64,000 nt of DNA from Psilocybe cubensis (GCA_017499595.2 CM039001.1:1798001-1862000); one strand, 5' to 3'. Shown: positions 33,033 to 54,941, counted from the stretch's first letter. The notes: generated by a model not told the origin, from the letters alone. A program made the numbers and translations.

Positions 33033-33162
33033 GCTTGGTCTGGAGAATTAAGTTGATTGGAAGAAGGGATGTGGATGACAGGTTATAAATTTCCTCCTGG
33101 TGTGGACTTCGTATACCTTGGACAGTAGACCATGTACATTCGGCCAGGCGTAGCAGTCACAT

Positions 33163-34187: not shown

Positions 34188-36460
34188 TCAGCGGCGCTGT
34201 TTCTTAACCTGTCTAACGGGTGCGCTACCATCAGCTAGAACTACTGCCTTTCTGGCACGCTTTGAAGTGGTTTCACACTCAGGTCCGGTTGTAGGTGTAG
34301 GAAGAGGCGCAGACGCAGGCGGAGGTGGAAAAACTGTCAGAGGGTATTGACCGCTGTGATTGGCAAGTGCTTTACTACGTTTCTTTCTCTTTTGCTCATT
34401 CTCTCGAACCTGGCGTGCCCATGCAGAAGGAACAGCTATGATGACTGGGGTCTCTGCATGATCATGAGTAGTGGAGGTGCAATCATGAGCGGTCGAGGTG
34501 GCGTCTTGCTGTAAGCTTTCTTCCACAGGATTTTGTGATTCCTTGCCTGTATTGCTCACTGACGCCGACTTTTTTGATATACGGCTACCTTTCCCCTTTG
34601 TTTGTTGCTTTTTTTTAGCCTTGGTTGTAGCTGCCGGCCTTGTCCTATCAACAGGAGCCTTCAACGGATTCGGTGCAGGACAAGAAAATGGAATATGGAT
34701 TGCCATTGACTCAGCATGCTGGGGTATCGATGTTGGAACTGGGGCCGTCGACGTTGGAACTGGGGCCGCCAACATTGGAACTGGGGCCGCCAACGTTGGA
34801 ACTGGGGCCGCCAATGTTGGAACTGGGGCCATTGAGGTTGGAATTAGAGCCGTCGATGTTGGAAATGTGGCCGTCGACGTTGGAACTGGGGCTGTTGACA
34901 TTGGAACTGGGGCCGCCAACGTTGGAACTGGGGCCATTGACGTTGGAACTGGGGCTGTCACAGTGGGTTGTTCGATAGCAGGTTGTTCGGCAGTGTGAGT
35001 TGCCATTGGCTCAGCACGATGGGGTATTGATGTTGGGGCAATAGCAGGTGTACGCAGCACAGGATGGATGGGCATTGGCGGAGCTGGGACAGTATTCGAT
35101 TCAACAGCAACAGGTGGTACATTGTTACCACGCAGAACCGGGTCAATGACACTGTCCGATATTACTGAAGGATTGTTCAGGGGCGCATTCAACATAGGAG
35201 GCTCCGGTGCTGGAGAAATCCGATACAAATCGGGGACGCTATTGGGACCAGAAAGCCCTGTTTCAATGCCATCGGAAATGGGATCGCTGGTTATGGCCTG
35301 CTCGTTAGGATATAATGACACTGCCGCTCGATCTTGTGGTGCTATATCATTTCGAAAATCAGTAAGTTATGCAGTCACTTGGGTTAAATTTGTTACTAAC
35401 AGTACTTAGTGTGCAGCCAGCGTCCAAACAGAGGCACAATATTATCGTGCCATTCAGAGTAAGCCTCTTGAAATGTGTGTCCAGCTTCATTTTTGCCTAT
35501 ACAAATGCTGTATTGACTCAGTCAGAAAATTCTGGTTCACGTTTCAGACACAACATTACACTTACGTAGCAACTGCACATTTTCCTCCCTCAATTGGACG
35601 AGGTCCTCCCACCATAAAGACACCCGACCATCCTGTAAGTTCATAAAGATCCTGCCCAACCTCCATCAAGACCGTCTTTATCTGATCGATTGCTCTAAAA
35701 GATATTGTATATTAGTGCAAAGATATAAAAATGAGGTAATCACATACTCTTGTAGTTGCGCGGGTGTCTGCGACTTGTAGGAGAGGGTTTTATGTTCCAA
35801 TGTACGCTGGTTCATTTCCTCTTCCTCTTCCTCTAATGCGCGTTCTATCTCTTGCTGAACCTCTTCCGTTTCATTGGCCCATGCCTCTCGTCGAACTTCT
35901 CGGCGAATTTTAAGATTGAGAGCACGTACATTATCAGGGCTAATGGTGTCGTCTTTCTCTATTGCCAACCGTTCCCTCACCAGGTTTGTTACTTTTTCTC
36001 CATAAATAATGTCATACATTTCCTCTGCATGGTGACGACGATGCTTCTTGGAACTTTTGCTGAACTTCTCCCGCACAGTCCCTTTCAAAACTGGCTTGGC
36101 CGTAACCTTGGACTTTGAGGACTCATTTCGAAACCAGTTGATAATATACTAGAAGACAGATAATGGTAAGTTTGCTATTTCGCAATTTTGTTGCCAAACT
36201 GCACATACTGATTTTCTCTTTTTGATAGCCTCACCAAGTTGTTCATCATATGCCAGATTGTCTAGGTTCTTGGTACCGGCATCGACACTCAATTTCTCTG
36301 CTAAGAGACTGTCGCTTTCCGGAAACTTGATAAAGTAAGCCCCATGAACTTTGGTCCAGAACTCGCTAAACTGTTTATTGGTTGTGCATTGGAGGTATTC
36401 GGGCATCCATGACATTAAAAAAGTGAATTGCTCTTCAGATGTCTTTCGACGAGGTGCCAT
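34188..36460 (-). CDS. KDZ cargo protein with a WFRN-containing N-terminus and a Pro/Thr/Ala repeat C-terminus
   Basis: Exons MAPRRKTSEEQFTFL...YFIKFP...KKRKS/YIINWFRNE...; TGWSGVFMVGGPRP; long last exon 34188-35321. Confidence 0.65.
34725..34960. repeat. 21-bp coding minisatellite (APVPTxx heptad), about 11 copies
   Basis: Repeated GTTGGAACTGGGGCCG(C/T)C(A/G)AC-like units. Confidence 0.9.
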
Positions 36461-38377: not shown

Positions 38378-38457
38378 GAGAGTAGGAATTAAGAACCTGG
38401 ACATAACTATGAATGTGGAGTTGAAACCACGGACCGGACAATATGATCGCCGATATT

Positions 38458-38928
38458 CATTATTCTGTTCGCGATCATTATTCTGTTCGCGATATGTTCG
38501 CGATTTGTTTGTGATATTCAATTTTTAAGTTGCAAATACACGAGAAGTAATGCTTATTTCAGCTGTAAAAGTACCTACCAAGCATGTCAAAAGCCCATAG
38601 TTCTGATTTTTATATTAATTTGAGTGGCATCGTCAGCTGAACTATAGATTTGAGGGAGCGACACCGATTGCCATTAAACATAACGTACTTCTTATGCACC
38701 ACTGTGTCCATGTCCCAATGTTCTCACTGTTGCATCCCACTTAAGGTCTGGATACCCCGAGTAATGTAGTTCTAAATGAAGGTATTGCAATGTAGATTTG
38801 TTAGTCAAGCTTCAAATTCCGTAAACCATTGAGATATGGCATGAAACTTGGGAACAAACATCAGAAATCGCGAACATATCGCGAACAAATCACTATCGCG
38901 AACTAATAATACTCACGAACTAATAATG
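38458..38928. repeat. Pair of inverted ATCGCGAAC arrays around a ~330-bp spacer
   Basis: 38458-38520 (TGTTCGCGAT x3) is the reverse complement of ~38853-38928, sharing AAATCGCGAACATATCGCGAACA. Confidence 0.75.
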
Positions 38929-39259
38929 CAATGCAACCTCTGTAAACTGTCCAATTCTCAATCTCAACACGCCAATCACACCTTGCATAGCCCAGAGTAC
39001 ACTAACAAGTAATTGACACAAAAAAAAATCTGTATTTGGCGTACTAGTACTTATAATATGTAACAAACATATAATGTACTAGAAACACGCGTACTAGACC
39101 CTTGCAATATATAAAGGGCACACGCACCTTGCTAGCAGAGCATGCGGTTAACCTGCATGAACACAGGCAGAGACTGAATAGCGGATGGTAAGTTGAAGAT
39201 ATTAAAGTATCTGGAGCACACAATTAGCTACGGTGCAGTAGAAAAACTAAAGCATCAAC

Positions 39260-39790
39260 TTACTCGAGTCCCCATCATTCCAGCTCCTGACGAACAATCG
39301 GCTCGACACACTCTTTCTCATGGAAGGTGTTACACAGCTTGGAGCCATACGAGAGCAGGCCCGAGTCCCAGAACGTTGTCTGCCACTGCACAGGTGGCGT
39401 CGTGGGGTGTGCAATGCGTACTGGTGCACCGCCGTCAACTACAAAGGACGCCTGGCTCAGCTGCCCGTTGCCCGTCAGGATTGTGCATATAAATGCAATG
39501 CGCGTGCCTGTGCGGAGGAAGATAGTATTAGTATGTGGTTGAGTTTCGGTGGTGGACTCTTGTGTAGTGTAGGGAAAAGCGCACCTGTGAACCGCATGCG
39601 CGCGCTGGAGTCGATAGTCAACGTTGAGTGCATAGTTCCGTGCCATGGCACCCTTTACACCAAGGCCAGCCTCCTTCGAACTTGCTGTTCAATCCGAGCA
39701 GCCTGTGGTGAGCAAAGAGAGCAACCCATGCGTCAGCAAATGCATTACACATTCGGTACGCTCTAACGAATCTACTCACTTCTGCATGCC
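39260..39790 (-). pseudogene. Captured fragment of a beta-sandwich (carbohydrate-binding-like) protein gene with introns
   Basis: Spliced PWHGTMHSTLTIDSSARMRFT/GTRIAFICTILTGNGQLSQASFVVDGG...FWDSGLLSYGS, then loss of similarity; GTGAGT and GTGCGC...CAG introns retained. Confidence 0.55.
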
Positions 39791-40354
39791 AAAACCTCAC
39801 CCTCCTACTCTGCATTGTCATTAGTGGCACACCAAACGACTCGGATGGGGAGGGAGGGCATGAGTCAGTCAGTCATTCAAACAGCATACACCGCACCCTG
39901 TTGCTTACCATTCTTTTTCCCATCCTACTAGCTTCGTGAAACCCCCCGCTATCATCAGCAAAAGTGACCAGACGCCCAAATGCCTTTGAGGCCTTATAGG
40001 GCAGGTCAATCCTTGATGTGACGTAATTATGTTGCGCAAACATTTGAATAATATTTGGTGGTGTCGAAAACATTTGGAGGGCATTCAAATGCTCCACAAA
40101 CATTTGACATCCCAAAAATGCAGTATAAATTATTTCAGGTTCTTGCAGTGAACACCCAATCATTGGTTTACCATAGAACTTTCAGAGAATGCTTGAGAAA
40201 AATTAAAATGGAGAACAAAACATTGATTTTAAATTGACGTCCACAGCAATGATTGAAGGTCTTTCAAATGCACGCAAAACAAATGAATGGATTCAAATGC
40301 ACTCAAAATGATTTATGCATCAGAAAACCTATTCAACGTACAGATAAGGTAAGG

Positions 40355-43300
40355 TTAAAACTCTGCAAAACCCACGGCTTCTGTATCATCCATATCCCAG
40401 GGCTCCTCCCCATCTTCTCCCACAAAACCTTCATCGTTCTCCTCATCTTGATCTTCTTTCTCTGACTCGTCACTGTTTTCAGACTCTGAAGCGTTCATGG
40501 CAGCCTCTTGCTCAGCTGTAACGGGTAAATCAACTTCTTCTTCGTCATCTAAAGGTTCTTCATCACTGAGGTTGAAGTAGGAACCAAAATACCACGGTCG
40601 CATGCTTCGCGTGTACTCGTTGGTGCCCTTGTGGCCAATACCGTAGCCTAGATAGCGTACAAACATGTCACGATCCACGAAACTTATCATACATTAGCAA
40701 TATGTATCAAATAGAATAAATAAAACAACACAGCGTACCGGTTAACATAATAGAAATTCCAGTCGTGGTCTGGATAGTTGTCATCTTCCCAGTAGGCTTG
40801 CCGAGCAATGGAGGGGGGAAGAAGGGAGTCAGTCATCCCCAAATTAAATGCCGGAATAATATGTGAGGCCCTGAGTATATCGGAGGGGTTGAGGAAGCCA
40901 AACGCATCCGGGGAATCCGAATCAATGAACTTGAGTCGGTCTAATCGGCGTGCAGTCCACCCCGCACGAAAGGCATAGTCGACTTCAAACCATCTTACCC
41001 ACAGAAATTCAAAACGTTGTGTTTTACCTCCGTTATGCTGTATGTCAGCGTCGAAGATACCAAGAACTCGAGCATACGAATAAGGGTGGGCCATAGAGCG
41101 ACCTGAGTCCCCGTCCCGAGAGAGAGTCATGATATTACAATGGTTCCGAGGATTGATAGAATCTTGCTCGCGTCGTACGTCGTAAGTTGTATAGTTGACT
41201 CGCAGGACTTTGTGCAAGTAAATTCGGTCGCTAAGGATGTTCACCTGTGCGCGCTCTTGGTCTGAATATGTACGGACTTGTCCTGTATTCGAATGGCCAA
41301 GTATTCGAGATAATATATGATCTTCGAGGTTAGAAACAAAGTCCTAATGTTTGAGCGAGTATTATTAGCACAGGTTGCAGTAAAGAATGGAGAGAAAATT
41401 ACCTCCGTAACTGCTGGGTCATCACAGTATTCGTTCATAAACTGAAACAAATACAGTTTATGGCGCTTGCTGGTCGATATTTGATGGTGCTCGGACGGTG
41501 AGATAGGAGGGAGACTCTCAGATTCCGAAGCTGAGACGATGTGTGGGGGTTTGATATACGATTTCTTAACACGCGAAGCCCTCGGACGCTTCTTGGACGG
41601 CTGTGCAGTGGCCTGCTTATCCTTTGAAGTTGAATTGGCCTTTTCGCTAGCCTCACTTTCTTCCAGTCTTGAAACCCGTGCAGCAATAGAGCGGAGCAAC
41701 TGCTCACGACGCTCATGACGAGAAATTTGGCGCTCAAACTGAGACCCCTTGTTGCTGCGTACAAAAAACCGTTTGACGCGACGGTGTTCCAATTCGCCCT
41801 GAGAGTAGTTAATATAATGTTGTAGTAACAAAAAATGACATACCCGTTGAGTAGAATAACCCTCTGTTGGGCCAAACATCCAGATAGTCTTGACATAATC
41901 TCCGAGAGCGTGAAGCTTATACGTGAAGAGGTTCAGCATTTTGGAAACCTTCGCATTCAGAGACCCAGGAGCGGTGGGCTTGCCCTTCTTTGCATTATTG
42001 GCGGCACGACGGGCGCGGGCAGCGGTCTCCTTTGGTAGTTCCTTGGTTGCGTACAGCGGACAGATCTTAGAGACAAAAGATCTGAGCTCCTTGCCTAGTT
42101 GACGAGTGGCGACACCAAGTCCTGTAAGCGTGGAGTTGGTATGCATGCGAAGCTTGGCGAGCGCGTGCCATTCACAGAATGTGAAGAGAATGTCTTGAAT
42201 AAATTTATCCTGCGCCGGAGGAAGGAGGCCTTCAAAGACTGGCATGGAGCACTAGATAGAGCATATTAGTGTTCCGTAACGTGGAACGATGGCAAATCAT
42301 TTATACGTACCTGAAGTAAGTCTTCAAAATCTCGGGCTGCAAGCTTGGTCATGTCCGATGCATTGCGGTGGAAACGGCGTATTGTGCTTCGGCCAAACGT
42401 AGACACTTTGCGATATCTATTGGCAGGTGAATGCACGAAATTTAAATGATAATATATAGTACTTACCTCCAGTTGAGACGCTGAACACAGTTGCCACCAG
42501 CGGCCAGAAGAATACGCATCATATGCGTGAAGAAAGACTTCCAAACACCAAGTTCGAACTCGTGTAGGAAGTCAGGTACAAACATGGTATGAAAATTGAA
42601 TCCAAATTTTGAAAGACGTGTTGAGAATGCATTCTACACAAAGGTTAATCGTTGTAAGAAGGGGTAAAATGGATCAACGTACCCGTGTTGGGACGGCCGA
42701 CGTATCCTGAAGGATATCTTCGACACGTGTGCTTTTGACCCCCTTTCCATGTTTGAAGATCCACTTTCGACTATTCTCAACCCTGTCGCGCCGTTGCTGA
42801 TCGTCTTTGCGAATGTGCGAGCGCCGCTGTTGATCAACATGAGTTCCAAGTCCACTTACCCAGCGCTTCTGAATAAAGCACCGAGGACAGACACATTTTG
42901 CGAGGTAGCGGATGGTGGCAAGAAGGACTCTGAAGGTATGACTTGGTACGGCATAGACCAGAGTAAACAAAACAGACTTACTTCTCAGGATAGTCGGCGG
43001 AGTATGTAAAAAACCGGGGAAACACACGACGTATGACACCATCGGCACATTTAATAATGATGCCATGTTCGTAGGCTTCCATGAATTCCTCGTCGAGAAG
43101 AATGAGCCATACGGCATGCATCAGCTCCCGCTTTAGGTGGGTGATTGTTGCTGCCGTTGCTGTCAGACCGTTGTAAGCTTTCATATAGATGTCTTGTAGG
43201 GTTTTGGGCAGCTAGTCACATATATAGTTAAACGAACAGAAAACAGAATGAGAACAATGAACATACCGATGGTAAATACGCAATGTGGTGCGCTGAGAAG

Positions 43301-44694
43301 CTATTGGGATTCGCACGTACGTACTTTGATTGATTGCCAAATAGCAGGTATAACGGCCAGAGTGATGCGTTGCCAAAGTTAGCAAGCTGGGTCGAGTCTG
43401 ACCACAGCATCAACGCAACAATAGCAATTTCGTGGGTATCGCTAAGTTGCGCTTCCTGATTCTGCTGTTTACAAAGATCGACATATTCATCGTAAAATGC
43501 GTCGGAGTTGTAGATCTCCGTAATGACGCGCTCTGGTGGACTCGAGGGCGATGGCTTCCAGAAAAGATGATGCGGTGTGAAATGCCATGATTCCGCGCTT
43601 TCATCCTGAAGGGCGGCCTTGATCGTGCCTACCAAACTCCGATAATAGACATTTGGTACCTCAAGGACTGGTGCTGCATCCTCGGAAGGGTGTAGCGACT
43701 GCTCGCAAGGAAGAGGTATTTTGACAGTTGCATTGATCCAGCCTGCTTCCTGTCTGAACGTTGATTGTGAACTTTCGGGTGCGGAAGTCGCATTGTCCAT
43801 GCGAGCGAGTTCCCGTTTCGCACTAAAGTTCTCCAAATCTTTGACACAGAAATCCTCGGCAAGCAGAACCTCCCGGACCAAGCGATCAAGCTCACCCACG
43901 GATTTCAGGGTAGTATTGCCATAGAACCAATGCATAAGGCGAAAAACCGTAGCATTCAAGAAAGGCGCAAAGCGGTTGGACACAGAAGCTTTGTCTAGGG
44001 ATATTCCCATAACCTTGGCAATCCGAGAACTTGATTCCTTTGGGATAGAGGTCGCCAAGCCAGGTGCATTGCAAAGATTGTCGAGTTCCTCGAAGTCATC
44101 AACCTCCTGTCTGGGAAAAGTTGGATATTCCCGGTACAAACCAAACTCGTTGGGCAGAGTGCGTGTTACGGTGGGTTCAAAAGAAGGAGCCGGCTCCGGA
44201 GTTAGTTCGTGTGGAGAAACAGGCTTTGGAGCAGATCGTCGGACTCGAGGAATGGGGGGAGGCATATGAGGTATACGGGTCGACGAGTTGGGTAAAAAGT
44301 CAACATGTTTTTTGGGATATTTACGTACACGTCCCAAACGCGTAGGAGGAGGGACAAACCCCTCAGGAAATGGGTCAGGGGGATCAGATCTTGGAGGCAA
44401 AATAACACCGTCGTCGATATTCTCGTAGGTCATAGAAACATCCTCCCATTCGGCATCCTGAAAGTATTCATTTGTCAGTATAATGTGTGTCGAAGCGGTG
44501 GACCATACCTTATTGAGTTCATGATTAACGGTGGTGTCAATCTTGACACGCTTCGCACTTCCAGTATCCCGGTCAACATCAAGCGGCTTGCAGACATTTT
44601 CAAGGTCTGCTTGCACAGCAGCACAGGTGATGCGGTGAATTCGAACTGCGTGCTTTGTTTTGAATGTCTTCTCGCAAGCATCGCAAATGACCAT
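40355..44694 (-). CDS. Plavaka transposase, multi-exon, N-terminal C2HC zinc finger
   Basis: ALMLWSDSTQLANFGNASLWPLYLLFGNQSKY, CADGVIRRVFPRFFTYSADYPEK, CVCPRC, DFLHEFELG, YKLHALGDY, NYTTYDVRREQD, FLWVRWF, FVDRDMFVRYLG. Confidence 0.92.
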
Positions 44695-44914
44695 GATGAT
44701 AAGAAACAACAAAATAGAATGCCGCATTGCAGCATGCAATGCGCATGGAGACAAAAAAGAGGTCAAGAAGGTAATATTGACCAGAAAACACGCGTCGCGA
44801 CGCATCAGAAAAGATCACGTGTCCGTTCTCAACGGGCTTTTTCGGAAAACCTGAAACCTTTTGCCCTGTCCCATCACCATCTCCCTACTCTGCAACCACC
44901 TACCTCGGGATTCC

Positions 44915-47061
44915 ATGGCTCCAGCCTCACAGATTCACACTGCAGACGCACAACCCCCACATTCCACTCAGCATGCAAAATCTCGAGAATCAATCAGCAG
45001 CAGTGACGGCAGCAATGAAGACAGCAGCGGCTCGGATACTGACCAAGACCATAAAGAAGAGGTGGTTATCAAAAAGCGCAAGAAGGCTTTGAAGGTTACG
45101 TTTCGTAAAAGGGCCTCTCGCAAAAAATTAAAGTCTTCGTGCGTATTGTGTTTTTTCAAGTTTAAGTTTACTACTGAATGCGCATTGCTGTCACCTAGCG
45201 CGGTACTCGAGCCCTTTATGCACCATTCGGCATGGCACATTCGCAATGGTGCTATCTACACCAACTGGGAACACGTTATTCTCACCGGCTTGAAGGCCGA
45301 GCAGGGGAAATTTGGCTCTCTTACACAGCAGGAGTAAGTAACTTTATTATTTACCCGATTTGGTCTCTTTTGTTTAAACTTTTTACTACTTTAGGTTTGC
45401 GGAGAAGCACAAAAAAGCACTTTCGGCTTACGACGATCTGCGAGCGGCTATTCCCACCTTTGACGATGATATAAAGGTCATCGCAAGGGACCCCGCTTAC
45501 CTAGACAGACTGTGCAAAACGGTATGAGTACCTATTTCTCATACACGTACATCTAATGTCCTATTCAGATGGTTACTGCCGCCGGAACCGCTCGTTCTAA
45601 CGACATCTCAAGCCTCAAGAAGGATGCACTTACCTATGCAGCACTGTGCCTGCCTGATGGTCGCCTGGATCCTCCCATTAACCCAAACGACTCCAAGAAG
45701 ACGACCCGAGGCTTCAAGCACCCGCAACTTGGTGCGCTTTTAGTTCCCGCCGCCTGCTTTGAACAGTATCAAAATGATCCCGAGTAAGTCACCCGTATTT
45801 ATATGCGTGTCATACTGATTTTGTTTTTGAGGTATCGTCGCAATCTCTCTCTCAACAAGGTTGTTATCAAGGCAAAGGCAATGCCACACCTGGTGTATCC
45901 GTATGGTAAGTACGACCCCGAGCATGTATTGGAAGGGATGTTCATGGCTCCGGCCTTGGTCGCGGTGCGTATTTTGTGTTGCTGTCTTCAGTACTACTTA
46001 CGCATGTTATCAGGTTTTTCAACATATATTTATGTCGCCATCCTCGGCGCTGAAGACACCTGGCATTACACGGACCGGACATGGGAAGGCTCGCAAGCAT
46101 CACATGAAGTCAGTTACGATACCGAGCATTGCATATGCATGCACACATGTACGTGTTTTTTTCCACATGTTGTATATACTAACCATGTCATCAGTATCGG
46201 TACGCTATTTCGGGATGTATGGACTGGCGTCAGAACGATAGGCATTTCAACTACGAAGAGTTCTACATGGAGGTTGTAAAAATGCTGGAGTGGGCTCGAG
46301 AAAATGATCCCGAGTGGTGGAAAGACTTTGTTACATGGTGGAACGCGTGCGTAGTTTCTTTTTTACAATTAAATTATATAACTCAAACAGTTCATCCTAG
46401 GCAAGTTTTCCCTGTCGAAGACGACTCCGTTACCGAGAGCAGTTCATCTGACGAAGAGATGACTACGTCTACCTTCAAGAAAATGAAGGCACAGGTGAAG
46501 GCCAGCCGTGCAGCGAGGGATATTCCTGCCAACTCTGCACCACCACCACCACCACCATCTCAATATCAGCGCGAGATGTTGTCGCCATCGCCGCCCTTGT
46601 CGTTAAGGCCTGTTCAGTCTCCGGCACCGGGTTCATCTATTCCACCAAGTGTAGGTATTCCTGGCCGGCAGCACCATGCTCAATACCTTGCCGGCCCAGT
46701 GGACGCCAACATTGACCCCCGTTTACAGATCCCAGGTCCTCATGTTGCTAGCAACCACCCACCTCTCGGTGGACCTTCTCGATATCCTGCAGGTGTTCCT
46801 CTGTTTTACAACTCATCGCACCCTATTGCTAGTGCCTCCACTCCGGCTCCGGCTCTGTCTCGTGGTCATCCAACCCCGCGCGCACTCTCTTCCAGTGTCT
46901 ACACTCAACAGTTCAATAATTCTCCGGAATGGCAGCTGGAGAATACCTACGACGAGTCATACTTTGCCGACCACACAAGGAAGAAGAACCATATTGGTCA
47001 TCGTCATCCCAGTGTAGGTCCCCAGATGAATCCGGTCTTCCCTGACATAACAAACTGGTAA
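44915..47061 (+). CDS. DUF6698-like accessory protein, divergent from the Plavaka transposase
   Basis: RGFKHPQLGALLVP, YDPEHVLEGMF, IFMSPSS, VTIPSIAY, FNYEEFY, WWKDFVTWWN...VF; Pro-rich tail. Confidence 0.7.
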
Positions 47062-47701
47062 GCTCACCTAATCATTCTGCAAGTTATCATTACTGATAAG
47101 GCTTTAGATTCAACTGCTACTATTATTCTCTTGGTGCTCTGGCCTCTCTCGCTACTGTCAACTTCTCGTTCTTGCTCGGCTCTCCTCTCACTCATGTTGC
47201 ATTTTGGACTTCTCGGCGACAGCTCTGGCTTCCATTCGACGGCGAAAATCATGTAATTATAGTCTGCTTGCATTCTGTTTGCTCGGTTACCTGTACTTGT
47301 AGCCTCCCTGTCTGTATTGTTATTTTTTAAATTGCAATTTCGCTTTCCATTGTTTATTACTGTGTGTGATGGCCTGAAGTAGCCGCTAGGAATAAGGGTA
47401 CCCAAGAAATGTGCATTGAGTGAATCCCAAATGATTTTGGGTCTCCTAAATGTTAGATAAATGATATTGGGACCCTCAAATGTTATCCAAATGTTTCATG
47501 TACTCTTAAATGTTGCGGAATGATTTGGCTATATTTAGTACTACCTAAAACATTTGCTTTGAATAAAGAATTCGAAGCCTTTCAGTCTTCGGAGTCTCTC
47601 GTTACGAACCGCACAATGCCTTTCGGGCATTGGGGCCTTTGGACGCCTCCAAATGCCTTGTCAAGGCATTTGGGGATCCGGACACTTTTGCTGATGATCG
47701 C

Positions 47702-48273
47702 CCTCGTGTCACAACACGATCCCAACTTGACGAGTTGCGTTGTCGTACACGACGCGCCTTGTTGGGAATGCCCTGACGAGGTGTGTCAGCATCGTTATCT
47801 ACACCCCACCTTGCTCGGATACCCATATTCGATACAACACGCCCCACTCTGACACTATGCCAGTTTCGGATGCCATATTGACGCAGATTCTGGCCCAGTT
47901 GGAGGCAATGCAAGTCTCCCAGCAGACTATGCAGGCAAAAGTACGTTACCTGACTTCATTGCTCCACGATGTTGTTAATAAAGTCTCAATTTCAGCTCGA
48001 TGCACCCTCTTCTCCTCTGGAACCTAAATCCATGAAGGGCCTCCCAAATCTCGCTACACCAAGCACCCCGCCTAGGGAAGGTGCATCAACTTCGACGCAG
48101 ACGGACGATGCCAAGGAGAGCGCAGTATCAGTGCAGGCGCAATCCACAAGGGCCGCCCTTTCCAGCGCACCTCCCTCACTTAGACCTGGCGCAGCGAGCC
48201 TTACAGACAAAGAGCGGGAGAAGCTCCTCGTGTCACAACACGATCCCAACTTGACGAGTTGCGTTGTCGTACA
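47702..48273 (+). repeat. Perfect 48-bp direct repeat (47702-47749 and 48226-48273)
   Basis: CCTCGTGTCACAACACGATCCCAACTTGACGAGTTGCGTTGTCGTACA twice. Confidence 0.95.
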
Positions 48274-48310
48274 AATGACTATTGCGGGCGGGGCTGCAGA
48301 AGCAGGGTGA
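47857..48310 (+). pseudogene. Captured 5' gene fragment resembling the N-terminus of fungal Urg1/GTP cyclohydrolase II-like proteins, fused in frame to repeat sequence
   Basis: MPVSDAILTQILAQLEAMQVSQQTMQAK / intron 47941-47995 / LDAPSS...LTDKEREKLL, then reads through the 48-bp repeat to a stop at 48310; family call from memory. Confidence 0.5.
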
Positions 48311-48364
48311 CGAACTGTGAGCACTTGTAAGTTACCTATGCAGCTGACATTACATTCTTACTCA

Positions 48365-49486
48365 CCTTTTGTCTTTTCAGCGTGTCTGTATCGGCATGCG
48401 ACTGGGATAGGGAGTTGCGCAGCGTTTTCTTCAGGATGTCCATGTCGCGAAGAAGCAACGAATCATGTTGAACCTCAGTAAGTGAGGAAATAACCGGCCG
48501 GTTATTGCCCCATAATTTTATGACATCATTCCGGGGTACAATTTGAGTGCCCCGCTGCACCTTTGCGTCATCTTACTGATTATTAGCCAGCGCGAGCGAC
48601 ACTTTGTTATTGTGGAAAAATTGCTATAACAGTTGAATTAAGACAAAAATAAATTCTAATTTACTGAGAAGATTACTGTGTGTCAGAATTAGGAGCGTCT
48701 AGCATATATTGAGCAAATAAAACATCTATCTTTTTGGAATGCTGGAGGCGACGCCTACGATAAACGCTTTGGTAAACAGCAGGATTTGAGAGGCGCCGTT
48801 TATATGCCTCCATTGCGTTTTCTAACCAGATTGTCAATAACATAAAATAAATGTTTACAAGATCACGTACCGGAGGTAGTAATACCTTTGGGATATGCAA
48901 ATGTGAGCAAATTTACACACGCAACTTTGATTTCTCTTATTTCGACTGATATGACACAAACATGTGAGCCTCAGGTGTGCAGAATAAAAATAAAATAACA
49001 AACTTAAGTAGCCACATTGAGCTTCGTAATCAGGGTCATGTCCACAACCAATAAGCGGACTCTCAGCATAACGTCCAGACGAGACAGTGAAGTAGCGAGC
49101 TGGAATGTTATGAAAACACTTCAGAGTCGGAAACTGGTGTGTTGCGGAATACTCGGCAAGATGTTCTGGATGTAAAAGATATCTTTCGTGCTCAATAACA
49201 GGACTGCATAATATTCAAGTTTGTTACTGTCATACTCAGACAAATAAATTCAGATGATATACGCACTATGCAATTTCAACAAGATGTCCACCTTCTGCAT
49301 CAGGCTCATATGTTGTAAGATTAGTGGCGCTAATCTGAGCCCTTCGGAGGCGTCTCCAGGTGCGACGTTCAGAGTGGGGAGACAGAGACATAGGTGGGAA
49401 TTGTTTTCGGTCCAGTCTGGAATGCTGTATATAATTGGGTGCCCGCTCTGTACCGGCAATGTAGACTGACTTGAATTTGATTCCAT
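48365..49486 (-). CDS. Cargo protein with a GRF-like Cys/His zinc-binding motif; a 3' intron is interrupted by the nested insertion
   Basis: LKCFHNIPARYFTVSSGRYAESPLIGCGHDPDYEAQCGY exon at ~49010-49200; other exons in ORFs 49250-49486, 48673-48900, 48336-48560. Confidence 0.55.
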
Positions 49487-49536: not shown

Positions 49537-50570
49537 ATGGCATTTGGTAATCTAGTACCCACAAATTATGAATTTACGTTCAAGCACAAGTACGTTCCAT
49601 TGTTTCTATTAATAGATCTTTACTTATTGACTACAGAAAAAGCAGCGGCTGGACGTATTGGCATATTCATGGATTATTCTATTCAGAAACCCCAGAAACC
49701 CCTAGAAACCCCTAGAAACCCCAGGGGTTTCTGAATAGTCCTCGAAGCAACATTCTAAACCCCTGCTTGAACATTTATGGGAGGTTTAAGGTCCGACCTA
49801 GCTTTGCTGGTCTGCCGTGTCGTGCCGTCGTTGTTGCCTTTGAATCAATAGTTGATCGTCTTCATGTAAATACATTCAATTGTTCAATTCCGGTACGCTA
49901 ACGCCTCTAATGCAACCCATAGTGCCAATAAAACTCAACAAACCCATTCAGGAACCTTCGAGTCGTTTAATGGTTATTTATTCGAAGGGATATCATATTT
50001 GATGTTTATGAACACCGAGGTAGGGCATCCAGAGCACTATAAGATACAGGAAGTAGAGAGTATAGCAGTGGTGTTAGGTACAAGGAAATACATTATACAT
50101 AGGTTTCTAGGCTTTTAAGTTGTTCACTTACTGCTTTTTTCATTTTCGAGCGAAGTTGCGCCTACGCACCCGAGTGGCCACTTGAAATGGCCCGCATGAG
50201 AATACAAGCTCCTACTTAATCCGCCGTAGCGGCATTCTGAACATTCATCACACCTTCATCACAACATTCATAACGATTTTATGAATTTTGAGGGTTTCTA
50301 TGGGGTTTCTAGGGTTTCTGGGGTTTCTGAATAGAATAATCCCATATTCATACTGCCATTCCCTAATGATGGAGTTCTATATCTAACATATGAGCAAATA
50401 CAGTAAGTACTTTCAAAGATATTTGTTTGTACTATTCTAATTTAAACAGAGAAATTGCTTTGGTGTGTGTCCAAGAGCAAATTCGGTCAGGGCAGCTTAG
50501 CATGCATGAGATTCTATATACGGAGCTACTGCCTGGTCATGAGGGCGATTCGGCGGGAAGTAAACATTGA
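49537..50570 (+). pseudogene. Small cargo ORF disrupted by the MITE
   Basis: Removing the MITE and one TSD joins ...EKAAAGRIGIF to ILPFPNDGVLYLTYEQI, then an intron, then EIALVCVQEQ...GSKH*. Confidence 0.45.
49671..50342. mobile_element. Non-autonomous Mutator-like (MULE) MITE, 672 bp
   Basis: 9-bp TSD CATATTCAT (49662-49670, 50343-50351); ~50-bp TIRs GGATTATTCTATTCAGAAACCCCAGAAACCC...; no coding capacity seen. Confidence 0.88.
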
Positions 50571-50678: not shown

Positions 50679-53600
50679 ATGCTTCGATCTACACGTCCTA
50701 AGTCCAAACGTGAACGGGCGCGGGAGAGAAACCATAACTCAGACTTTACTGTCATTAGCAACAGCTCTATATCAACACCAGAACCGCTGTCAGCATCTTC
50801 TAACATTGAAGTCTTGCATCGTCATGAAACTGTCAACGCTTCCTCTGATCATCGCGCTTCTGCAACATTCAAAAATAGATATTTTGGAATATTCCAGTCA
50901 CTTACTGATGAGGCAACTTGGCGCCGTTTGGGTACTCGGTCCCGATTAACTGAACCCCTCATTGACGTTGATATTCTTGATTACCATGACTTTGATCTGG
51001 CTGACTTGGGATTTGAGCCATTGGACCCACTTTGGAGTGACAATATTGACGAGGACTCCCCTGATGATGGCGTAGCACGCAAAAAACCCAGAATCTCACA
51101 AACGGCATGTTTTGATTGGCAGAATTAATTTAGTAATCAAATATTGACCGTTGATTTTTTTAGGATAATCCATTGAAGAACTGGGTTGAACAAGACAGAG
51201 ATCGTGACCTACAAGAAATCCTTCGCCTTGATGGACGAGGCGACTATTCAAATCACTCGAGCTGTTATCAATGCAAAATTAATGATGCCTTGTATCAGTG
51301 TCTTGACTGTGATCGGATTGAGATGTTTTGTAATGCTTGCATTGTGGGAAATCATTTAGCCAATCCTCTTCATCGTATCAAGGTATGTGGTTTCTAATAT
51401 TTACATGAAATTACTGATTTTTTTACTACTGTAGAAGTGGAATCAGCAATATTTTGAACCGACAACACTGAAGTCTTTAGGACTTCGAGTCCAATTGGGT
51501 CACATGATAGGTCAAAAATGTGTCAATCCACGTGCTTCTCCAGGGAATGGTTTCACGGTTGTTGACTCGAATGGCATTCATGATATTTCTCTTGACTTCT
51601 GTGACTGCGAGACAGCTCAATCTCATGCCATCCAGATTCTCCGAAAACGATGGTTTCCATCTACCGGCACATATCCGAAAACCGCAGCGACAATGCGAGT
51701 TTTGAAGCAATTCCATTTACTTGCTTTTGAATCTAAACTTTCGTCATACGAGTTCTACAATAGCCTTGTACGAAACACTGATAATACAGGACTAGGAACT
51801 GATAAGGTAAGAATTATATCTAATCTTCTAGTGATATGAAATATCTAATTGTACACATGAATGATTAGGATTGCTACGATGAATTTACCCGAATGTATCG
51901 GAAATGGACCAACTTGACAATGGCCAAACGTGCTGGTCGAGGCCATGACAGCCGTGGCGTCAATGCAACGCAGCCTGGCGAATGTGCCCTTCTTTGTCCT
52001 GCTTGCCCTCAGCCTGGAAAAAATCTTCCTTTGGGATGGGAAAATGAGCCGCCAGAAAAGAGGTAAGTACCATTGCCCGTTTAATGAGCCTATATTGACA
52101 TTGAAGCAGTTGGATCTATGGACTATTCCTTGCTATTGACGCCAACTTCCGCCTTACTCGCCGTCATGTTTCATCAGAAGATCGGGATCCAGGCCTTGGG
52201 AATGGCTGGGCATTCTTTGTTCAGAATATACCATACCAGGAACACCTAAAAAGGTTTTGGGACTATAAGCAGCCGGTAAGCATTGAAACCGTACCTTCAA
52301 TCTATCTTGCAGTAATTTATGGTATTCTAGAAAAGCACGTGTGTAAATCATGAAGCTTGCAACAATTCCGAAAAAGAGGTTCAAGGAAAATCAGTAACTG
52401 GAGGGGGTACCGTTGATTGTGCGCGTCATAATTTCAAGCGACCCTGTGGATTTGGTGATCTTCAAAAAGGTGAAAGGTAAGTTCAATCCTAATTTATTCA
52501 ACGACTCGGACTACATTGATTAACCCATTTTAAGATATCTAAATATGGACTACATGTTTTTTTCGAGTATCATGCGAACAGCTGTCAAGCGCATTTTTGT
52601 TTCTTATGACATTGCATGCCAGTGGTACAAAAATATCTGGCAACGAATGGGGACCATGCTTCCGGCACCAATGCACATCTCGTCATCTGTTGACAATATT
52701 CAGTTTCTTGTTCCCAAATTCCATATTGCGGCACACATTCAGGAATGTATTCTCAAGTTTTCCTTCAATACAACCAAATATGTCGGCCGGACGGATGGAG
52801 AAGCCCCAGAACGTGGATGGTCGGCTACGAATGCCCTCGCAACAAGCACGCGAGAAATGGGACCGGGCTTTCGACGCGATACTCTGGATGACCACTTTAA
52901 TGACTGGAATTGGAAAAAGATTACGGGCCTTGGTAAGTGATAGCGTCATCAGCAATTTTTTTTATCTAATCTATTGTAACAAATCAGGAGCGTCTCTTCT
53001 CAAAAAGATCAAGAAGGCTGTTCCTCAAGCAGCGGAACATATGTCCCAGCGTCGGCAGTTTGAAAGTGTGCTACCAACAGACGATATCAAAAAGTGGACG
53101 CAGGAAGTTGAGCTATGGGAATTGTCAAAGTCATCGCCAAATCCATATCAAGCCCTAGTAAAAAGTATGCGCAACACGAAGTTTGATAGCGATATTTGAA
53201 ACTAATCTTATTCTCAATTTTTAGGTATGACCGAAGCAGAAGTTCGCCTTCTTTTGGCACAAAAGGCTGCCGCTACCCAGGACGAGGATGTTGTCCATTC
53301 AAATGTGCACCCGAGCATACTAATATCTCAAGGACTACAGTTGGAGGAACAGCAGTGCGTTGCCGATTATGTCCCTCCTATTGTTACTGTGTTTTCTAAT
53401 GCCTGAAATATTAGACGAAAACTTGCTAGAGAAGTCAATGCACTCGGTCAGCACGCAACACCAAGTCAAATACGGGTCATTCAGGAATCCTCCAATAAGC
53501 TTCGGCGAAGAATAACAGCATGGACCGAGGTACAATCTCTCTACATGCCACATGCTGCGGTACTCAGGCAAAAAGATGCTTCGGCAATGCTTCTACCTGG

Positions 53601-54791: not shown

Positions 54792-54941
54792 ACGTATCAG
54801 CTAGTGGTGATTCGGCGGTTTCATAACACCAATTGGAAGAATGACACCATATATAGAATCTATCTATTTCGGGTTGCGGCCCGTCATAACCAACTTTTTT
54901 ACATTTTCTTGGCAAGGTTTGGCCTCCCACACCTAAACCAC

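Follow-up and report, generated by a model that had tools for sequence, protein, structure and literature searches.

A 64,000-nucleotide stretch of Psilocybe cubensis DNA (the window) contains a nest of transposons with a small mosaic of host gene fragments inside it. The evidence was drawn from these 64 kb, from protein databases and from published papers. A block of 9,101 bp (39219-48319) is embedded in a complete 21,665-bp Kyakuja-type KDZ transposon (33145-54809), and the block is itself composite, as a complete PlavakaB transposon of 7,744 bp lies within it. An earlier note on this DNA had read the block as a fungal gene-capturing element of the Pack type, hidden in an intron of a cargo gene, and had put its size without Plavaka at about 1.36 kb. 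Removal of PlavakaB and one copy of its AT duplication leaves 1,355 bp, in line with that estimate, and this remainder is referred to here as the outer element. We give a slightly better than even chance to the view that the outer 1,355 bp represent a Pack-type (transduplicating), non-autonomous cut-and-paste element of unassigned superfamily that was later hit by PlavakaB.

The inner element (39953-47696, minus strand) is bounded by CATCA..TGATG termini, with a terminal inverted repeat (TIR) matching at 18 of the first 20 positions, and by a 2-bp AT duplication at 39951-39952 and 47697-47698. It encodes a Plavaka transposase on the minus strand (approximately 44814-40355; Pfam Plavaka, PF18759, 3.8e-13) and a DUF6698 gene on the plus strand (approximately 44855-47061; Pfam, 6.2e-10). 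PlavakaB elements are described as having CATCA..TGATG termini and a duplication of 2-3 bp (PMC12730594) and, judged by its sequence, the inner element appears to be a PlavakaB in its transposase, its termini and its duplication. The claim that Plavaka is nested in a mosaic without a transposase of its own is borne out by these termini and the AT duplication. PlavakaB, which is delimited by its own ends, supplies the only transposase inside 39219-48319, and the four open reading frames (ORFs) scanned from the outer parts, among 24 proteins in total, gave no Pfam family match. Self-comparison of 39000-48600 against the window revealed only two repeats, namely the inverted repeat of Plavaka and, in direct orientation, a perfect repeat of 48 bp.

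Gene fragments in the outer element

The left part of the outer element consists of a left-terminal segment of 116 bp (39219-39334), an internal fragment of a gene for a transmembrane beta-sandwich protein (39335-39645, minus strand), and a 305-bp segment with intron-like GT..AG units on the minus strand (39646-39950). Read on the minus strand, the left-terminal segment starts with 71 nt that are GC-richer and exon-like; GTAAGT and 45 AT-rich nt come next. The right part begins with the first copy of the 48-bp repeat (47702-47749, plus strand) and continues with a 5' fragment of a URG1-like GTP-cyclohydrolase-II gene (47750-48229, plus strand), the second copy of the repeat (48226-48273, plus strand), and a right-terminal segment of 46 bp that ends in TGTG (48274-48319). 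The GC contents of the two outer parts are 0.527 and 0.544, those of the 500-bp flanks are 0.392 and 0.426, and that of the whole window is 0.452; computation confirms in this way what had been judged by eye, that the fragments are richer in GC than their surroundings. The observed/expected CpG ratio is 0.79-0.95 throughout and does not place the two terminal segments with either host or insert.

Parent genes were identified at the protein level, against reference Psilocybe proteins, by protein search and tblastn. The right fragment corresponds to residues 1-111 of a 545-amino acid P. cubensis protein annotated as 'Uracil-regulated protein 1', which carries GTP-cyclohydrolase-II domains (E 1.1e-30, 95% identity). 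Exon 1 (47857-47940) encodes residues 1-28, all 28 of which are identical in tblastn, and the partial second exon (47996-48229) covers residues 29-111 with four substitutions and one gap of five residues (15 nt, in frame). A 55-nt GT..AG intron (47941-47995) is kept between them, and the fragment also carries 107 bp upstream of the ATG, which lies 160 bp from the Plavaka end. The search among longer proteins returned two matches from 494 candidates, the second being the P. cyanescens orthologue (61%), and the ESM Atlas yielded nothing useful for this fragment (best 0.75). Two of the four residues in 47996-48229 that differ from the P. cubensis protein agree with the P. cyanescens orthologue. 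Because of this agreement, the reference protein may not be the same as that of the window's own URG1 parent, and the 5% divergence may overstate the age of the copy.

The left fragment corresponds to residues 30-107 of the 508-amino acid P. cubensis membrane protein JR316_0002502 (E 8e-25, 88% identity). In this case, two of the 74 longer candidate proteins matched, the second again being the P. cyanescens orthologue (76%); the search among proteins of similar length gave 13 candidates, none of them significant, and the ESM Atlas gave only sub-threshold leads to Ig-like beta-sandwich proteins (best 0.88). By tblastn, residues 30-50 are placed at 39645-39583 (18 of 21 identical) and residues 49-107 at 39511-39335 (53 of 59), with identity to the P. 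cubensis parent ranging from 86% to 90% across these parts and a 77-nt GT..AG intron (39508-39584) kept. A deliberately permissive tblastn detected no homology to residues 1-29 or 108-160 of the parent. Since the homology is confined to residues 30-107, the fragment is an internal piece of its parent gene with sharp breakpoints.

The two parent genes are unlinked. In P. cubensis they lie on contigs of 3.62 and 4.33 Mb, with accession numbers approximately 4,700 apart, and in P. cyanescens they are likewise found on different contigs. Both fragments are DNA-level copies of these unlinked Psilocybe genes, as the 55-nt and 77-nt introns and the 107 bp upstream of URG1 have been kept. The URG1-like and membrane-protein parents also uphold, at the protein level, the proposal that the element is a mosaic of at least two unrelated intron-containing gene fragments.

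The two copies of the 48-bp repeat are 100% identical, have a spacing of 524 and bracket a 476-bp piece of URG1, the first copy beginning 3 bp past the Plavaka duplication. Homology to URG1 reaches 48229, and its last four nucleotides, CCTC, are also the start of the second copy. Template switching in the course of repair or replication synthesis is the probable source of at least the URG1 piece, and a single template-switch detour is the simplest reading of the bracket. Having passed through the 48-bp stretch, a polymerase would depart from the element, take in 476 nt of the URG1 locus and come back at the CCTC microhomology, 48 nt upstream of its exit point; re-copying of the 48 bp would then yield the perfect bracket. 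Microhomology-guided template switching is the model put forward for the formation of Pack-TIR elements (PMC8277862). As an alternative, slightly more than one turn may have been copied round a small circle derived from the URG1 locus, which needs the 48 bp to lie upstream of genomic URG1. Another published model derives a Pack element from two neighbouring truncated copies (PMC6379663). Such a Catoni-type origin is less likely here because both truncations would have to stop at the identical 48 bp. The repeat folds into two small hairpins, and the effect is modest (z -2.05; 9 of 200 shuffles fold equally well).

Two short words in the outer element were noticed post hoc. The 8-mer TGACGAAC occurs twice in the 64 kb, at 39288-39295 and 48308-48315; both copies are in the outer element in direct orientation, one 70 nt from its left end and the other 5 nt from its right end. 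In addition, TGACGA is present in the outer element five times, with 0.74 expected.

Termini, boundaries and the flanking reading frame

The outer element begins with CACA and ends with TGTG, its putative termini being CACAATTAGC-like. When its first 18 nt are compared with the reverse complement of its last 18, 12 of the 18 positions match, in accordance with the weak CACA..TGTG TIRs described previously. The junctions read ...GGAGCA/CACAATT... on the left and ...ACTGTG/AGCACTT... on the right, which gives a putative target-site duplication AGCA at 39215-39218 and 48320-48323 that extends to GAGCAC at 39214-39219 and 48319-48324. Within the plausible boundary windows (39211-39335 on the left and 48273-48371 on the right), 39219/48319 is the sole pair of positions that combines a duplication of at least 4 bp with an inverted match of at least 12/18. 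Among control pairs taken from within the window, 49 of 1,482 (3.3%) reach both thresholds, and none of 2,965 reaches them together with CA..TG termini. A shared direct 6-mer alone is expected, being present in 2,666 of the 2,965 control window pairs. The ends are non-random, and on this point the proposal of a fungal Pack equivalent gained support, as CACA..TGTG termini with a 4-bp duplication are rarer than chance.

Over its first 11 nt, the left terminus agrees at 9 positions (CAC.A.TAGCT) with the Kyakuja right end read as its reverse complement, a level reached by only 13 of the 1,715 CAC-starting 11-mers of the window, the two sequences themselves included. CA..TG termini with duplications of 2-5 bp are reported as typical of the CMCT clade (PMC12730594). 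The outer ends are probably real and of the CA..TG kind that is common to the CMCT and KDZ lineages. The GC change points, at 39263 on the left and at 48603 or 48313 on the right, are compatible with the proposed boundaries to approximately 45 bp and do not pin them.

The superfamily had been left unassigned in the earlier note, and our comparisons lead to the same position, since each of the five candidates misfits. Kyakuja makes a 7-bp duplication and has a subterminal motif that is absent here. The termini differ from those of PlavakaB, with no match between them, and PlavakaA is described with TGT..ACA termini and a 2-bp duplication (PMC12730594). For CACTA/EnSpm, the ends do start with CAC, but only the 4-bp (or 6-bp) parse of the junctions is symmetric and not the 3-bp parse. 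A Helitron was set aside in the absence of a TC start or a CTRR end at the junctions on either strand, and the terminal 46 nt form no significant hairpin (z 0.06 and -0.18).

To the right of the element, a 67-codon ORF segment on the minus strand (48372-48572) ends at the GTGAGT of the supposed intron. Removal of 39219-48319 together with one AGCA does reproduce the 50-nt minus-strand GT..AG string that had been quoted for this intron. The further arguments drawn from it, that it independently supports the boundaries and that the element sits in an intron of a cargo gene, were not supported on closer inspection. The right flank supplies 46 of the 50 nt, including the donor and a branch-like site, and the left flank gives only CCAG; after the splice the host frame runs for only two codons (I, L) before a stop, and the unspliced frame stops nine codons later. 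Because the left flank adds just 4 of 50 nt and the splice gains two codons, the restored intron has no discriminating power and is not an independent support for the boundaries. A rival intron-like unit of 53 nt (GTAAGT..CTAAT..CAG), which runs on the minus strand from 39263 down to 39211, spans the left junction and uses the same CAG, and the left GC change point coincides with the GTAAGT of this unit and not with 39219. For the host exon, an exhaustive HMMER search gave three matches at E ≤ 0.001 (best 9.2e-06), to short stretches of WisP-, apolipoprotein- and WD40-repeat proteins, which we treat as chance. The exon has no Pfam family, and in a metagenome scan with its protein, 562 stretches fitted the pattern and none was confirmed. 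As no credible relative of the host ORF was found in these searches, 'cargo gene' and 'intron' are putative labels.

Weighing the possible origins

In the reading that we prefer, an outer element with CA..TG-type termini would make a 4-bp target-site duplication and carry DNA-level pieces of host genes. An orphan ORF of an old Kyakuja would house this element in its non-conserved 3' end, and an autonomous PlavakaB would later insert into the element, giving the 2-bp AT duplication. The sequence shows how the locus is built and nested, which genes were the parents, that their introns were kept and that the ends are non-random; the mobility of the element, the mechanism of capture, and whether capture took place here or before arrival are what we infer. 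The mobilising transposase is not that of this PlavakaB and not obviously that of this Kyakuja. It is conceivable, in our judgement unlikely, that the element is a member of a still-mobile Psilocybe Pack-type family, mobilised in trans by a transposase of KDZ or CMCT type that duplicates 4 bp on insertion, with its pieces gained by template switching and the 48-bp re-copy left as a scar.

Several observations weigh against a Pack-type element. Approximately 560 bp of it, made up of the two terminal segments, the 305-bp segment and the 48-bp repeat, have no assigned parent, and to call these parts its backbone is a guess. The TIR is weak in absolute terms, at 12/18; the 4-bp duplication is unlike that of Kyakuja (7 bp), PlavakaB (2-3 bp) or classical CACTA (3 bp); and the outer element has no copy of TGATATATCA, the subterminal motif of Kyakuja. 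Both the thresholds and the CA..TG condition were set after the data had been seen, and because of this post hoc choice the true significance lies between 3.3% and 0/2,965. The leftmost 45 nt are equally readable as the start of an intron (GTAAGT at 39263). Given this rival unit and the GC change point at the same position, the left-terminal segment may be a third captured exon-intron piece, or host sequence, and not a transposon terminus. When five pieces, terminal and otherwise parentless, were searched against the window, only self matches and chance hits of 10-15 nt were returned, and no match came from metagenomes scanned with 30 nt of the 48-bp repeat, a scan that did not extend to the ends of the element. 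One copy and no empty site have been seen, and loss of host bases at the junctions is possible.

Much the same picture could arise if the mosaic were one-off templated filler DNA, laid down independently of transposition at the repair of a double-strand break inside Kyakuja; Kyakuja would then be the 'Pack' vehicle, CACA..TGTG and AGCA would be coincidental, and Plavaka would have come later. Short pieces of unlinked loci with sharp breakpoints and microhomology suit such an event, the 48-bp re-copying is also typical of repair synthesis, and single-copy animal Pack-TIRs have been attributed mostly to gap filling (PMC8277862). The lack of a second copy in the window search and in the scan with the 48-bp-repeat stretch also speaks for filler. 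A short flanking repeat is expected by chance, given that 2,666 of 2,965 controls share a 6-mer, and the boundaries are not independently fixed in view of the change point at 39263 and the alternative GT..AG reconstructions. However, a duplication of at least 4 bp, a 12/18 inverted match and CA..TG termini occurred together in 0 of the 2,965 controls, and the left end resembles a KDZ terminus (9/11). Moreover, published fillers are mostly from nearby, with 59.8% from the same chromosome (PMC8277862), whereas the parents here are on different contigs. We regard a filler origin as doubtful, though a possibility to be taken seriously.

The whole 9.1 kb might otherwise be a Plavaka that was moved or copied along with some 0.7 kb of contiguous old flanks, using cryptic outer ends or ectopic repair; the flanks would stem from two genes arranged head to head, with Plavaka in the promoter between them. 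It is in keeping with such an origin that both fragments read away from Plavaka (the left one is a minus-strand and the right one a plus-strand fragment, whose ATG is 160 bp off), that Plavaka is only 3 bp from the first 48-bp repeat, and that the left fragment, at 86-90% identity to JR316_0002502, could descend from an unseen paralogue. However, codons 1-29 of the parent are missing from the left fragment, whose homology begins abruptly at residue 30, and it is therefore not the promoter-facing 5' end of a gene. In two species the parents are unlinked, the simple copying of one contiguous stretch leaves the 48-bp duplication around URG1 unexplained, and PlavakaB has exact termini and an AT duplication of its own; carriage of old flanks is quite improbable. 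A chimeric assembly of reads from the URG1 locus, the membrane-protein gene and transposon copies is scarcely to be believed. The locus is a repeat nest, and a perfect 48-bp repeat could be collapsed or mis-joined, but all junctions lie in unique sequence, and only the 48-bp repeat and the Plavaka TIR recur. Substitutions and an in-frame gap of 15 nt also separate the fragments from the reference parents, as befits an old copy, and the duplications at Plavaka and Kyakuja are clean.

The host transposon and known gene-capturing elements

The Kyakuja-type element that surrounds the block (33145-54809, plus strand) has CA..TG termini, and the 7 bp ATTCGGC are duplicated exactly on its two sides, at 33138-33144 and 54810-54816; clean duplications are found on both sides of Plavaka as well. 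Its transposase gives matches to the Pfam families CxC2 (4.4e-44) and KDZ (PF18758, 1.2e-42) at 51435-52937, and the subterminal motif is present in ten copies, eight near the left end and two near the right. Kyakuja is described as having a 7-bp duplication and CA..TG termini (PMC12730594), and the host element would fit this description, as far as sequence can tell, in its KDZ transposase, termini and duplication. It differs in its partial TIR (20 of the first 30 nt), a feature that the two families described so far are reported to lack (PMC12730594).

At least three insertions are nested in this Kyakuja. Between the host ORF and the KDZ transposase gene lies a 672-bp foldback element resembling a miniature inverted-repeat transposable element (49671-50342), with 51-nt inverted ends made of GAAACCCC-type repeats and the exact 9-bp duplication CATATTCAT on both sides; on account of this duplication, its features suggest a Mutator-type non-autonomous element. 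A small inverted-repeat structure at 38457-38910, possibly a further miniature element, has perfect 23-nt arms (38484-38506 and 38865-38887) and many TCGCGAACA-type repeats, and includes an 18-bp tandem duplication at 38457-38492. Further to the left, a 21-bp unit is repeated 11 times head to tail (34685-34997) within a 392-codon Kyakuja ORF on the minus strand (34191-35366) for which no Pfam family match was obtained.

Considered as a Pack-type element, the outer 1,355 bp can be compared with several known systems. TIR transposons that capture genes are established in plants, as Pack-MULE and Pack-CACTA (PMC6379663), and in animals (PMC8277862). The Pack-CACTA or Pack-TYPE transposons of plants, among them Arabidopsis Pack-CACTA1a, are likewise non-autonomous, with short termini starting with CAC, a short duplication and no transposase, and their interior derives from several chromosomal gene fragments and is partly of unknown origin (PMC6379663). 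However, the plant Pack-CACTA elements are reported to occur in several copies and to have been seen to move, with a 3-bp duplication and conserved termini of 26 bp that the autonomous CACTA1 also has (PMC6379663), whereas the outer element has a 12/18 inverted match, a symmetric parse of 4 bp, one copy seen and no known partner. Animal Pack-TIRs, which are defined by their structure, are similar in holding host sequence between TIR ends, in the microhomology at their breakpoints and in their proposed template-switching origin, and their single-copy status is compatible with gap filling in situ (PMC8277862). They differ in having a recognised vehicle family and fillers that mostly come from nearby (PMC8277862), unlike the parents on different contigs found here.

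Within the fungi, transduplication by hAT and Tc1/Mariner elements was reported in 2013 from Pyrenophora tritici-repentis as the first fungal case (PMC3538342), and the novelty that the earlier note attached to a fungal Pack equivalent was overstated in this respect. That system also consists of DNA transposons with host coding sequence between their ends, but it is found in an ascomycete, carries entire ORFs (a histone H3-like gene), and comprises 10-46 almost identical copies from known superfamilies (PMC3538342). The outer element, by contrast, occurs in a basidiomycete, carries truncated, intron-bearing fragments and is a single copy. Helitrons start with TC and end with CTRR and a hairpin, and they have neither an insertion duplication nor TIRs; none of their features is found at 39219/48319 on either strand. 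The likeness to the gene-capturing Helitrons of Pleurotus ostreatus and other fungi (PMC4289320) lies in the presence of host gene pieces in an agaric. We found no published report of a Pack-type TIR element from Agaricomycetes, as judged without full texts. If real, the outer element is a known kind of element in a new host group.

Known from one unverified copy, the outer element is a good lead and not a discovery. The 48-bp bracket, which has 4 nt of microhomology at one of its junctions, is the clean trace of a single capture and could help to decide whether template switching or the model of two neighbouring elements applies. The triple nesting, in which the mosaic lies in Kyakuja and PlavakaB in the mosaic, gives the order of activity of three transposon lineages. 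Shuffling of host gene pieces is known chiefly from plants and animals; the fungal record consists of ascomycete hAT and Mariner elements and of Helitrons. If other copies exist, they would show that TIR transposons of mushroom-forming fungi shuffle exon-intron pieces of host genes, and a mobile family of this kind would be the first gene-shuffling TIR family described in Agaricomycetes, with an autonomous partner yet to be described.

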